A stretch of 64,000 nucleotides of DNA. Source: Myxococcota bacterium (GTDB taxonomy: Bacteria; Myxococcota; Myxococcia; Myxococcales; Myxococcaceae). The position numbers were made by a program. Within the stretch, counting starts at the first letter, position 1. Every line of letters begins with the position of its first letter. Shown one piece after another: positions 33,001-37,853 of the stretch. The stretch spans positions 1-64,000 of the forward strand of contig JBMORE010000144.1 in the NCBI GenBank assembly GCA_049322255.1, written 5' to 3'.

Positions 33001-36000
33001 ACCGCGCCACCGAGGTGCAGCTCTCCATCTTCGAGCCGCCGCGCTTCTTCGAGGCCTTCTTGCGCGGGCGCTCGTACCGCGAGGCCCCGGACATGACCTC
33101 GCGCATCTGCGGCATTTGTCCGGTGGCGTATCTGATGAGCGCCTGTCACGCGATGGAAGACGCGGTGGGGATTCGGGTGGAGGGCCCCTTACGTGCGCTT
33201 CGCCGGCTGATCTACTCAGGCGAGTGGATCGAGAGCCACGCCTTGCACGTCTTCCTTCTCCATGCGCCCGACTTCCTCGGCTACCCCGACGCGATGGCGA
33301 TGGCCAAAGAGCACGGGGAATGGGTGAAGAAGGGCCTGCGAATGAAAAAGGCGGGCAACGCGGTGATGGAGCGGCTGGGTGGAAGAGAGATTCACCCCAT
33401 CAACATCCAGGTGGGCGGCTTCTACCGGGTGCCGGGGCGCGGGGAGCTGGACGAGCTTCTCCCCGAGCTTCGGTGGGGGCGCGAGGCGGCGGCGGAGTGC
33501 CTGGAGTGGGCGAGCAGCTTCACCTACCCCGTCCTCGAGCGCGACTACGAGCTGGTCGCCTTGCGCCATCCCCAGGAGTACCCGATGTGCGAGGGCCGGG
33601 TGGTCTCCTCGCGTGGGCTGGACATCGAGGTGCGGGAGTACGAGCAGCACTTCGCGGAGGAGCAGGTGCCGCACTCCCATGCGCTCCACACCCGGAGAGT
33701 AGGCGGCGGCTCGTGCTTGAGCGGGCCACTGGCGCGCTACCACCTCAACTTCGACCGGCTGCACCCGTGGGTCCAACAGCTCGCCCGGCGCATGGGGCTT
33801 TCGCCGCCGGTGAAGAACCCCTTCCGCAGTCTGCAGATAAGGCTGTTGGAGATTGCTCAGGCGTTCCAACAGGCAATCGAGATCATCGAGGCGTACGTCC
33901 CGCCCACGGAGGCATTCGTCCCGGCCACCCCGCGAGCGGCCATCGGCCATGGCGCGACGGAGGCTCCCCGCGGGCTGCTCTACCACCGGTACGCGCTCGA
34001 CGAGACGGGCACCATCGCCGAGGCGCGCATCGTGCCGCCCACCTCGCGTAACCAACTGGCCATCGAAGAAGACTTCTTCGCCATCGCCCCCGAGCTGGCC
34101 GCGCTTCCCCACGCCAAGGCCACTCACCGCGCCGAACAGGTGGTGCGTAACCACGACCCCTGCATCTCCTGCGCGACCCACTTCCTCACCTTGCGAATCG
34201 AGAGAGACTGAAATGCGCGCGCGCGTCATCGCTTTGGGACAGAGGGCTGCCGGGGACGACGGGGTGGGCTTGTCGGTGTTGGAGTGGCTGCGCGCGTACG
34301 GTGTGCCCGCGCAGATGGAGCTGCGGCAGGCAGCCGAGGCAAGCGCGCTCTTGGAGCTGTTGCAGACTCCCTCGCCCACGGTGGTGGTGGACGCGGTGCT
34401 GGCCACTCCGGCGGGCCGGGTGCTGGTGCTCACTCCCGATGAGCTCGATGCCCGAGGGCTTCTCGCCGCGTCCAGTCACGGCTTGGGCGTCGGACAGGTG
34501 GTGCAGCTTGCGCGCACCCTGCATGCCGAGGCGGTCTCTCCGCACATCACCATGGTCGCGGTGAGCATCGAACGGCCCGAACGTTACGGGTTGGGGCTCT
34601 CGCCCCAAGTGGCGGCGGCGGTTCCCCAGGCGGGCGCGCGGGTGATGGCTCTGGCAGGAGTGGAATGCGATGCATGAATCGGCGCTGTCGAAACAAATTC
34701 TCGACGCAGTGTTGGAGCGGACACGGGCCGAGGCGCCCTCCCGCATTCGCCGCGTGTTGGGCTGGGTGGCGGAGACGGAAACCCTCTCGGCGCAGAGCTT
34801 GAGCTTCCATTTTTCTGCCCACGCGCGTGGCACCCCTGCCGCCGAGGCGGTGCTCGAGCTTCGGCTCGTCCATGTCGAGGCACGCTGTAGCGGTTGCGCC
34901 CACGTGTACCGCCCGGAGCACCACCTCCTGCTCTGTCCTCGGTGCGGCGCGACCGAAGGGGAGCTGCTCGGCCAAACCGGCTTGGGGGTAGACGCGGTGG
35001 AGGTGGAGTAGTGGAACGACGGCTCGCCATCTCCATCGGGGGCGTGGTGCAAGGGGTGGGGTTTCGCCCCTTCGTCTTCACCGCGGCGGCCGAGCACGGC
35101 CTCTCCGGCTGGGTGCGCAATGGACCGGACGGGGTGCGCCTGGAGGTGCAGGGCCCGGAAGGAGCGGTGCAGACGTTCGTCGATCAGCTTCGCCGGGCGC
35201 CCGCCCCCGCGCGCGTGGAGACGGTGGAGATAGAGGACCGCCCGCTCTCTTCCGGCCGAGGGTTCTTCATCGAAGAGAGCGAGCTCGATGCCGCGCCTCG
35301 TCCCTCATTGCCCGCCGACCAAGCCACCTGCTCGCTCTGCGTGGACGAAATCCTCACTCCCGGCACCCGGCGTTTCCACTACCCCTTCACCAATTGCGCC
35401 CGATGTGGCCCGCGCTACTCGCTGATTGAGGCGCTCCCTTACGACCGCGCTCGTACCACCATGAAGGGCTTCGGCCTCTGCGCGGAATGCGAGGCGGAGT
35501 ATTGCCGCCCGGCCGATCGGCGCTTCCACGCCCAGCCCATCGCCTGTCCCCAATGTGGGCCTGCCCTCTCCCTCTGGGAGAGGGAAAGGGCGAGGGGTGT
35601 CAGCTCGGGGAATTCACGCCCCTCACCCCGACCCTCTCCCAGAGGGAGAGAGAGCGGGGACGCGCTGGCCAAAGCGACGCAGGCGCTGGGCGAGGGAAAG
35701 GTGCTCGCGTTGCAGGGCCTGGGCGGATTTCAGCTCTTGGTAGACGCCACGTCTCCCGATGCCGTGATGCTTTTGCGAAAGCGCAAGCACCGAGAGGAGA
35801 AGCCCTTCGCGGTGATGGTACGCACCTGCGAAGAAGCGCGCGCGCTGTGCGAGCTGAGCGCCGCGGAAGAGGAAGCCCTTCGCTCCCGAGAAGCTCCCAT
35901 CCTTCTCCTCCGGCGACTCCCTCTGGGAGAGGGTGGGGGTGAGGGGCGCGTAGCATGTCCAGAAGTCGCCCCCAACAATCCTCGCCTCGGAGTCATGTTG

Positions 36001-37853
36001 CCGTACACGCCGCTCCACCGCTTGCTTTTGGAGGCGGTGAGCCGCCCGCTGGTGTGCACGAGCGGAAATCTTTCCGAGGAGCCGATGTGCATCGACGTCG
36101 GCGAGGCGCTCGCACGCCTCAAAGACGTCGCCGACGTCTTCCTCGTTCACGACCGTCCCATTGCCCGGCCGGTGGACGATTCGGTGGCGCGCGTCGGGCC
36201 CGATGGCTTGGAGCTGCTCCGCCGCGCCCGCGGGTTCGCCCCGCTTCCTTTGCGGCTTTCACGCCCGGCTCCTTGCACCTTGGCGGTGGGGGCGCAGCTC
36301 AAGAGCACGGTGGCGCTCCTGCAGGACGATCAGGTGGTGGTGAGCCAGCACCTGGGGGACCTCTTCAGTCTCGAAGGCCGAGCGCTGCTCGAACGCACGG
36401 CGCGGGACTTGGTGCGCTTCTTTTGCGCGCGCCCGATGGTCATCGCGTGCGATGCGCACCCCGACTACGCCTCGACGCAGCTCGCCGAGCAGTTGGGGCG
36501 GGAGTGGGACGTTCCACTCGTGCGGGTGCAGCATCATCACGCCCACGTCGCTGCGTGCGTGGCGGAGCACGGCCTTTCCGGCTCGGTGCTGGGGCTCGCC
36601 TGGGACGGGGCGGGGCTAGGCGACGATGGGACGCTGTGGGGCGGGGAGGCGCTGGTGGTGAACGAGACGGGCTTTCGCCGAGCCGGTCATCTTCGTCCCT
36701 TTCGTCTCCCCGGTGGTGAGCGGGCGATGCGCGAGCCAAGGCGCGCGCTCCTGGGGCTTTTGCACGAAGTGTTCGGAGCGCAGGCGCCCGCCGTGGGTGG
36801 CCCACACCCACGCGCGCTGTTCACCTTGCTCGAGCGGGGCACCCACGCCCCTCGCACCACCAGCGTGGGGCGGCTCTTCGACGCGGTCGCCGCGTTGCTC
36901 GAGTTGCGCCGTGAGCCGGGGTTCGAAGGACAGGCGGCGATGCTCGTCGAATTCGCGGCCGATTCGGCGACGGACGTCGAGCCGTATTCGTTTCCGCTGA
37001 GCGACGAGGCTCCGTGGATTGCCGACTGGGAGCCGCTCATTCGTGAGCTGCTCTACGACCGGGAGCGCGGCACCTCGGTGGCGGTCATGTCGGCGCGCTT
37101 CCACGAGTCGCTCGCTGCGCTGGCGGAGGCCTTCGCCCTGCGCGCGGGCTTGCCAAACGTGGTGCTCTCGGGTGGCTGCTTTCAGAACCTTCGCCTGGCC
37201 ACTCGGGTGAAGGAGCGCCTGCGGGCCCGAGGTTTCCGAGCGTTCACGCCGCGGCTCTTTCCTCCGAACGATGGAGGAATCTCCCTCGGGCAAGCAGTCG
37301 TGGCGTCGAGACTCCCTCTCCCCCTGGGAGAGGGGAGGGGTGAGGGGCAATAGCTCTTGCGAGGTGCCTGCATGTGCCTAGGAGCTCCTGGAGAAGTGTT
37401 GACCATCGAAGAGGGACCGCTGCGCACGGGGAAGGTGCGCTTCGGCGGCGCGGTGAAGTCGGTGTGCCTGGCGTACACGCCGGAGGCCGCGGTGGGAGAC
37501 TTCGTGGTGGTGCATGCCGGCTTTGCCATCAGCCGCATGGACCGCTCAGCGGCGGCCCGCGTCTTCTCATACCTCGAGCAGATCGACGCCGTGGAGGACG
37601 ACTGATGCAATTCGTCGACGAGTACCGCGATGAGACGACCGCGCGCCGCTACAGCGAGGCGATTGCCGCCTTGGTCACCCGCCCGTGGCACTTGATGGAG
37701 GTGTGCGGCGGCCAGACCCACGCCATCGTTCGCTTCGGCATCGACCAGCTGCTCCCGGCGCAGGTCACACTGCTCCACGGACCAGGTTGCCCGGTGTGCG
37801 TCACCCCGGTGGAGATGATCGACCGCGCGCTGGCGATCGCCGCTCGGCCGGAG

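Follow-up and report, generated by a model that had tools for sequence, protein, structure and literature searches.

Results

Copies of one repeat in hypF and other genes

The window analysed here, a 64,000-nucleotide stretch of a contig from a Myxococcota bacterium (genome G000), carries copies of a short repeat in hypF, in bioD and in a hydrogenase gamma-type gene. These features are given below, together with a nuclease cassette that lies outside the window.

35011..37353, + strand: hypF, carbamoyltransferase, 780 aa, intact, with three repeat sites; TIGR00143 match of 722.8 bits (cut-off 466.1)
35564..35652, no strand: inverted dimer of 89 nt (unit on +, 23-nt spacer, unit on -), in frame, HypF residues 185-214
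35913..35945, + strand: single unit with its C-rich arm eroded at the 5' side, in frame, HypF residues 301-312
37314..37346, + strand: single unit coding the last residues of HypF, 768-779; orthologue ends differ
31384..31416, + strand: one unit, in frame with a hydrogenase gamma-type gene (31277-32149) and close to its start
6694..6726, + strand: one unit, within bioD (6161-6889) and in its frame
C47:17869-18222 of G000, outside the window: DUF559 (Vsr-like) nuclease gene between two inverted units
C47:17834-18272 of G000, outside the window: whole cassette (unit, DUF559 gene, inverted unit)

HypF retains its zinc-finger and HHHAH motifs, and its AlphaFold model has a mean pLDDT of 90.7. An earlier note on this DNA had placed two repeat sites in frame in the gene; both are in frame, and the 3'-terminal unit adds a third. 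In an alignment with 24 family orthologues the 30 codons of the dimer give a net gain of only 16 aa, so that about 14 host residues were replaced; the length of this segment is 100, compared with a mode of 84 (72 of 118 other matched homologues). The dimer codes for a predicted β-strand, E186-190, and model confidence is low at residues 191-210. At the second site the net gain is only about 3-7 aa. Repeat-like peptides occur in the same HypF loops elsewhere (P0079 at site 1; P0024, P0083, P0108 and P0112 at site 2), and a DUF559 domain was listed for none of the best 120 HypF homologues.

The unit near the start of the hydrogenase gamma-type gene adds 19 aa relative to one orthologue, and that in bioD adds 14 to 16 aa relative to 5 orthologues. 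Net gains from in-gene units range from +3 to +26 residues, and several units overwrite host codons and replace host residues; the earlier figure of 14-31 added residues was therefore an overstatement. Repeat peptides are absent from orthologues in all nine genes compared, as had been proposed from fewer. Among the host enzymes that the note described as conserved, MoaA, Lhr, MurD, KdsB, BioD, CysG and TsaB satisfy their NCBIfam models or come close to doing so, whereas AroA has a match that stays below its own cut-off.

Identity and geometry of the repeat unit

A weight matrix applied to the whole G000 genome found 301 units at 256 loci and no match in the reversed genome, reproducing the scale of the previous estimates of 282 units and of about 255 loci. 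A strict pattern search returned 243 units at 211 loci, with none in a fifth-order Markov control. The consensus of 227 units matches the BoxC/PIT/TMECO motif, CCCTCNCCC-N3-6-GGGNGAGGG-N3-GGGNGAGGG, as set out in PMC4666352, and the identification made in the note stands. Per-position pairs and triads in 262 units, together with covariation across taxa, fit a class II purine-motif geometry in which arm 1 pairs with arm 2 and arm 2 is mirrored by arm 3. Arms 2 and 3 covary across taxa, and the covariation takes in all three arms; the triplex finder selects matching arms, so all that the covariation table demonstrates is a misfit between arm 3 of one type and arm 2 of another. According to PMC4666352, E. 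coli oligonucleotides of the motif form a triplex in vitro, and stable triplex was found neither in double-stranded DNA nor by in vivo footprinting, which we count against an explanation that joins a nuclease to a triplex. The triplex fold of the G000 copies is putative.

The weight-matrix set contains 38 simple inverted dimers and 3 three-hit loci. The 38 dimers are inverted doublets of 74-95 nt with conserved arms and a variable spacer. Their spacers are nonetheless related (nearest-neighbour identity 0.65, versus 0.42 when shuffled), and one sequence family of about 23 nt is common to dimers at unrelated loci. No target-site duplication was found around the 38 dimers, where the longest repeat averaged 1.92 versus 1.86 in shuffled sequence, and extension of the palindrome outward from the units was at chance level only.

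Placement of units relative to genes

Positions were scored against gene calls from our own codon model (4128 genes, 88% coding). The 301 units comprise 42 in the interiors of 34 genes, 31 C-terminal, 16 N-terminal, 48 on a stop codon, 11 on a start codon and 153 intergenic; the last figure is an upper bound, since the in-frame unit at 31384-31416 was miscalled intergenic. The interior class agrees with the 40 units in 33 genes counted before. Host selection filters the copies: gene interiors hold 42 units where 197 were expected, and the units that are found there lie deep within intact genes. One case counted as interior, in a MoaD/ThiS-family gene (L172), is instead a read-through tail past the end of the domain.

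Five reading phases are used, as the note held. Its further claim, that the sixth is never used, does not survive, since the TGA of arm 3 serves as the stop codon of 41 genes, which thus use that phase at their ends. Absence of the sixth phase inside genes is tautological, since any unit read in it terminates the gene, and its avoidance was rejected as evidence, being a counting artefact. Among 46 genes whose stop is overlapped by a unit in the same orientation, 20 were scanned and none was clearly cut short; the last domain was complete in 14, 3 had residues enough to complete it, and 3 were uninformative. No signal of selection on the peptides was detected: arm mismatches were equal at four-fold sites (10/424) and at first and second positions (30/1296). 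Of the 301 units, 42 are interior, 47 are terminal and 48 overlap a stop codon, and location between genes is a trait of the E. coli copies and not of the motif. The description of the E. coli motif as strictly intergenic was not found as such in the accessible text of PMC4666352, which places the motifs 10-310 nt from ORFs.

A DUF559 nuclease gene bracketed by units

The G000 cassette, which the earlier note missed, is present in a single copy and stands free between two convergent genes. Its product is a bare 117-aa domain with conserved Q44, D53, E64, D66 and H70. The fold matches 3HRL, I-Bth0305I and Vsr (TM-score of 0.65 by query and profile match E 7e-4 in the comparison with Vsr-like/EDxHD homing endonucleases), giving a Vsr-like catalytic fold with E-x-D...H...D residues. 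Consistent with the earlier finding that no Y1/RAYT transposase is present, G000, which is 99.6% complete, has no PF01797 match.

Bracketing extends across phyla. Triplex motifs lie on both sides of DUF559 at 49 of 74 GTDB loci, versus 1 of 269 control windows, and an inverted-repeat score of at least 15 was obtained at 51 of the 74 loci versus 2 of 269 controls. Within the family (n=18 loci), 13 are bracketed on both sides and 17 on at least one. An alignment scan of viral contigs gave 21 DUF559 loci, bracketed on both sides in 6 of the 12 closest and on either side in none of the 9 distant ones; when such contigs were scanned with a single protein, no match was obtained. Whole cassettes also lie in frame in host genes: 21 of 31 scanned frames, drawn from 80 loci, contain a host Pfam domain in frame with the cassette, and hosts in other taxa include MetRS, MetH, HrpA, ValRS, BioA, PriA and methyltransferases. 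One cassette allele lies where a terminator-like hairpin, present in the empty site, is absent, and by eye no target duplication was seen at the cassette's empty site. The dimers have the orientation of the cassette, and their inner flanks resemble its inner flanks.

Cassette and repeat number in relatives

In the genus of G015, all 13 genomes with 228-598 units carry the cassette, and none of the 5 with 2-80 units does. This prediction was recorded before the result, and the cassette state of 15 of the 18 genomes was not known in advance; the genomes are not independent, and profile A1 includes one member of the genus. The 13 positive genomes have one cassette each, in all of them at one locus. 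At one orthologous spacer, inspected by eye, the repeat-rich genomes have intact units, whereas those of G078, G087, G090 and G092 have decayed or disappeared. The genus of G061, taken as a replicate, offered 2 genomes only, with the cassette in neither.

Elsewhere in the family, four repeat-rich genomes lack a full DUF559 gene. G017 (183 units, 99% complete, 40 contigs) and G007 gave no match at E 0.01, and G061 (281 units) and G053 gave only weak, partial ones. G095 has the most units (598), yet a stop lies within its nuclease gene. Cassettes are present in G009, G005, G052, G056, G013 and G072 with 0-9 canonical units; these cassettes have variant ends, which the pattern would not count.

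Discussion

The earlier observation is confirmed and its interpretation partly supported. On balance, we think it probable that a two-part system, selfish or domesticated, is at work, with the repeat as its non-coding half and the enzyme of the DUF559 cassette making or keeping the copies; this nuclease is the best candidate for a mover or maintainer of the units. A single chromosomal cassette would supply the Vsr/EDxHD-fold nuclease in trans, and monomers and 74-95-nt dimers would be copies made or kept intact by it. We infer that a unit made single-stranded, either in a transcription bubble or at a replication fork, would fold into a hairpin-triplex, and that the nuclease would nick at or beside it. 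Host repair would join the end so released to a new site, in some cases via short microhomology, and between a few and about 60 host bases would be lost. Copies would land widely, and the survivors would be those after stop codons, on a stop, or in frame at tolerant positions, with the Pro/Gly/Glu/Arg peptides as by-products. Against this reading we count the repeat-rich genomes that lack DUF559, the broken gene of G095 and the cassette genomes with 0-9 units. A lone nuclease has no strand-joining activity, which also counts against it, as does the failure to find a clean empty site of an in-gene unit among orthologues, which are 60-73% identical. Nor were exact monomer empty sites found in the genus of G015, where spacers are too variable to align, or an informative empty-site joint among sequencing-run contigs.

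Units might instead spread by themselves through triplex fork stalling and error-prone repair, with DUF559 a passenger or parasite that uses them as landing pads, or an enzyme that only repairs existing units. Triplex-linked instability is discussed in PMC4666352, and the repeat-rich genomes without the gene, the broken G095 gene and a weak monomer strand bias (78 versus 37 in favour of the G-skewed strand, which holds 58% of genes) all suit such self-spread. It fails, however, to predict the split of 13/13 against 0/5, or decay without the cassette, unless the nuclease at least maintains units, and we regard it as unlikely. More doubtful still is the view that a full cassette once stood at each unit or dimer and left it as a scar on later losing the nuclease gene between its inverted ends. 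The whole cassettes in frame in other taxa, and the agreement of dimers and cassette in orientation and inner flanks, point that way; set against them are the single cassette of G000 and of the 13 genomes, and the 23-nt spacer family at unrelated loci, which implies that dimers were copied as dimers.

We consider it very improbable that the inserts are absent from working proteins, as recent pseudogenes, assembly joins at repeats or segments skipped at the RNA level. Sequencing-run contigs do break inside units, and no single contig bridges the whole dimer, but contig tiles overlap in the expected order, reading frames are open with domains complete on both sides, and the hosts include murD and kdsB. 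In hypF, moreover, the orthologue alignment and predicted model indicate that a conserved strand is supplied by repeat codons, so that skipping them would delete needed residues. That the peptides were selected as functional linkers or tags seems hardly credible: the repeat-like peptides in the same HypF loops of other organisms would fit, whereas the use of five phases, the lack of visible synonymous-site relaxation and the strong depletion of gene interiors would not.

Known systems share parts of this arrangement. BoxC/PIT/TMECO (PMC4666352) has the same 9-3-9-3-9 consensus, inverted doublets and patchy distribution between close strains. E. coli ycjD, a DUF559 gene whose product is 48% identical to that of G000, is separated from TMECO 9 by about 170 nt, and the 3' end of ycjD carries the remnant of a unit; E. 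coli differs in having 23 copies, against about 300 here, many of them inside genes. REPIN/RAYT systems (bioRxiv 10.1101/2021.07.10.451892; PMC3733652) likewise have doublets of about 90 nt with conserved arms and a variable spacer, and a single repeat-flanked enzyme gene at a fixed locus whose loss is followed by decay, a likeness seen in the genus of G015, with exceptions elsewhere in the family. Their enzyme, in contrast, is a Y1 (HUH) tyrosine transposase rather than a Vsr-like PD-(D/E)XK nuclease, and the unit here has a third, mirror arm. By published description, REPINs lie almost only outside genes and RAYTs do not move themselves, whereas the DUF559 cassette turns up across phyla at many unrelated sites and is often in frame there. 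A MITE or IS derivative is set apart by the lack of target-site duplication. As for a cognate transposase, the search covered Y1 (HUH), which is absent; the repeat-bracketed gene is a nuclease. RPE and intragenic GTAG/CGTC REPs (PMC10969869, PMC3733652) also enter unrelated housekeeping genes in frame, as singles and dimers adding 20-30 residues, as do these units in unrelated, intact genes whose orthologues (nine genes) lack them; their sequence is probably unrelated and, as described, has no triplex arm, and five phases, some replacement of host residues and a candidate enzyme distinguish the present repeat. EDxHD homing endonucleases (I-Bth0305I; PMC2677866) have the same catalytic fold in an invasive gene, but the 117-aa domain here has no intron, intein, fractured gene or extra DNA-binding domain, and is repeat-bracketed at many unrelated loci.

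A bolder proposal, which we hold only tentatively and incline to doubt, is a new class of replicator: a bare Vsr-like nuclease that would read an intrastrand triplex as structure, copy units and its own cassette without a transposase, and remodel proteins by overwriting loops, even a core strand, in frame.

Neither the pairing of DUF559 with the repeat nor its in-frame copies was found in the published literature. By the account in PMC4666352, BoxC/PIT repeats have been without a function or mover since the 1990s; the paper gives the motif no function and does not contain the word 'endonuclease'.

We know of no substrate for DUF559/YcjD, and linking it with BoxC/PIT allows a direct test that needs a single protein of 117 residues and an oligonucleotide of 33 nt. 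If the link is true, it would add a system that resembles REPIN/RAYT but relies on another class of enzyme, and suggest that intrastrand triplexes may have a role in vivo. GEG/PSP-type peptides and stray DUF559 domains in synthetases, helicases and methyltransferases would then be insertions, not adaptations.

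Abundance and placement of the repeat

The repeat is real and its abundance is far above chance: a strict pattern found 243 units in the genome and none in a Markov control, and a weight matrix placed 301 units at 256 loci, against zero when the genome was reversed, in agreement with the large-scale presence claimed in the earlier note. The weight-matrix search also returned 38 simple inverted dimers of 74–95 nt. The unit consensus is the TMECO consensus as given in PMC4666352, and the unit belongs to BoxC/PIT/TMECO.

Placement was scored on gene calls from our own codon model. 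By these calls, 42 units in 34 genes lie more than 40 codons inside the gene, compared with 197 units expected by chance, and the claim of interior, in-frame units stands; apart from hypF there are 33 host genes, a majority of which match Pfam or NCBIfam. Units crowd gene ends, with 93 of 153 intergenic units beginning within 10 nt of a stop. Gaps between convergent genes are enriched for loci (37/181 vs 206/2157 gaps), and gaps between divergent genes are depleted of them. The absence of the sixth, stop-carrying phase from genes had been offered as evidence, but it is uninformative because 41 genes terminate on the TGA of arm 3. Since four-fold sites of in-gene arms are as conserved as first and second positions, the repeat-coded peptides show no sign of selection.

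Monomers in this genome favour the G-skewed strand, 78 to 37, and in a related genome (G081:C1:9116-3007648) the first 67 perfect units among the matches listed are all on the + strand, which may in part be an effect of the listing. At several sites in relatives G081 and G089 (loci L270 and L279), units occur as variants in which the linker joining arms 2 and 3 holds an additional hairpin of ~35 nt. Locus L257 and its orthologues L263–L282 hold many copies of a 14–16-nt palindrome, which we take to be parS-like.

In-frame units in hypF and other host genes

The units in hypF are as follows.

35011–37353, hypF, intact gene
35564–35652, inverted dimer in hypF
35913–35945, unit in hypF
37314–37346, unit forming the HypF C-terminus

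HypF had been described as carrying two copies; both are confirmed, and a third site must be added at the C-terminus. Units add residues to enzymes, but the gain can fall well short of the unit's length. The HypF dimer spans 30 codons and yields a net gain of only 16 residues, and the second HypF unit yields ~3–7. Relative to orthologues, KdsB is longer by 12 to 13 residues, BioD by 14 to 16, MoaA by 14 to 15, Lhr by 18 to 26 and an epimerase by 2 to 12; TsaB gains 10 over 4 of 5 orthologues, the fifth having its own insert, and MurD gains 3 to 6 over 12 of 13 orthologues and is 2 shorter than the other. Within the window, a unit also lengthens the product of a hydrogenase gamma-type gene by 19 residues. 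Some units thus come close to being pure insertions, and others take the place of host codons. Repeat-coded ends frequently resemble the residues replaced; microhomology may account for this, or the events that did least harm may be the ones that survived. In the AlphaFold model of HypF, repeat-coded residues 186–190 are predicted to make a strand that in homologues is built from host residues, and residues 191–210 are modelled at low confidence.

A compact operon for a NiFe hydrogenase of the sulfhydrogenase type fills the region 29674–39747; maturation genes surround hypF in it, and it contains five repeat units at four sites. At the protein level, five other HypF proteins (P0024, P0079, P0083, P0108 and P0112) carry repeat-like peptides of ~50 residues in the same two loops. 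Elsewhere in the window, which contains 100 N, about ten coding repeats of 141–147 nt each occupy 8290–9731 and include an exact 127-nt duplication (8836–8962 and 9063–9189) that may be an assembly join. A 21-nt tandem array at 40590–40799, with at least 7 overlapping 84-nt copies, is likely a coding repeat for a heptad coiled coil.

A DUF559 nuclease gene bracketed by units

No Y1 transposase was found in the genome, as the earlier note had stated. The genome has one clear DUF559 gene, located between two convergent genes. A unit lies on each side of it, the two being inverted and arranged as in the dimers. The predicted structure of its product (pLDDT 88) matches 3HRL, itself a DUF559 structure, as well as the homing endonuclease I-Bth0305I and Vsr. 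Catalytic residues of Vsr, listed in an excerpt of PMC2677866, were mapped to Q44, D53 and H70 by motif rather than from a printed alignment. YcjD-like proteins are predicted PD-(D/E)XK nucleases, according to part of PMC1189080.

We took the best 80 of 575 DUF559 relatives in GTDB and dropped 6 with short flanks. A sequence-agnostic triplex finder was positive on both flanks at 49 of the 74 loci, compared with 1 of 269 control windows, and on one or both flanks at 67. It was also positive in the opposite orientation on 26 upstream and 29 downstream flanks, and dimers are present in several flanks. Where the purine arm varies between taxa, the third arm tracks it. Long open frames occur at 37 loci, of which 32 were examined and 31 scanned for domains; the cassette is in one frame with a host domain at 21 of the 31, and at 10 of these listed domains lie on both sides. 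Six of the 10 are methionyl-tRNA synthetases, one of them truncated by the end of its contig. In six taxa (loci L052, L058, L075, L076, L094 and L129), the full cassette occupies one and the same linker region near the C-terminus of methionyl-tRNA synthetase.

In E. coli K-12, ycjD adjoins TMECO 9 and has a unit remnant at its end; the passages found of PMC12817139 place it where other lineages have eefRABCD. Downstream of ycjD, in the interval before TMECO 9 (L050:1830-1960), lies a second, degenerate copy of the ycjD 3′ end, as if one cassette had been replaced by another.

Co-occurrence of units and cassette

Of 81 family genomes, 7 of the 19 with units and 3 of the 62 without have a full DUF559; those three have variant triplex ends. 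One of the 62 is G048, an unpublished genome that lacks DUF559 and bears on no other result here. In the genus of relative G015, unit counts split the 18 genomes into two groups, and the prediction that the cassette tracks units was set before the result, when 3 of 18 states were known. One cassette was found in each of the 13 genomes with 228–598 units and in none of the 5 with 2–80, two of which have a divergent, unbracketed DUF559. The upstream flank is common to all 13 cassettes and the downstream flank to the 11 with enough sequence. They comprise two alleles, one behind a terminator-like hairpin known from empty sites and the other where that hairpin is absent. The triplex finder was positive on both sides in 10 of 13, and 12 of the 13 nuclease genes are free of internal stops. 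Other results speak against the link. Two relatives, G017 and G007, gave no DUF559 match at E 0.01, while two more, G061 and G053, gave only weak partial ones; all four but G017 are in 730–1300 contigs. G095, with the most units, has a broken nuclease gene. Related genomes, moreover, are not independent.

Relation to known systems and a model for spread

Cassette presence tracking repeat number is a likeness to RAYT/REPIN, as described in part of bioRxiv 10.1101/2021.07.10.451892. The two systems are alike in the way they work but differ in the enzyme, which places this one outside REPIN/RAYT. Palindromes lying in frame have been described for Rickettsia and for GTAG/CGTC REPs (passages of PMC10969869 and PMC3733652), as well as for a corynebacterial family (passages of PMC2267715). 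We found no report in the open-access literature of BoxC/PIT/TMECO in frame, although copies within genes could appear in the TMECO tables of PMC4666352, and no paper there tying DUF559 to these repeats. DUF559 is enriched among predicted inversion targets in PMC9881135, with no remark on it in the passages found.

Dimer spacers from unrelated loci (27 long spacers) form one sequence family, and the arms are ~97% conserved. This fits repeated copying in which the arms alone need to stay intact. No target duplication was found. We therefore favour a trans-acting nuclease. What we infer is the cutting, the formation of the triplex in vivo and the joining; in the discussion of PMC4666352, the triplex was seen in single strands only. 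We consider it moderately probable that the DUF559 nuclease acts in trans on a unit folded as a single strand, that host repair would complete the insertion, and that selection would keep the harmless copies.
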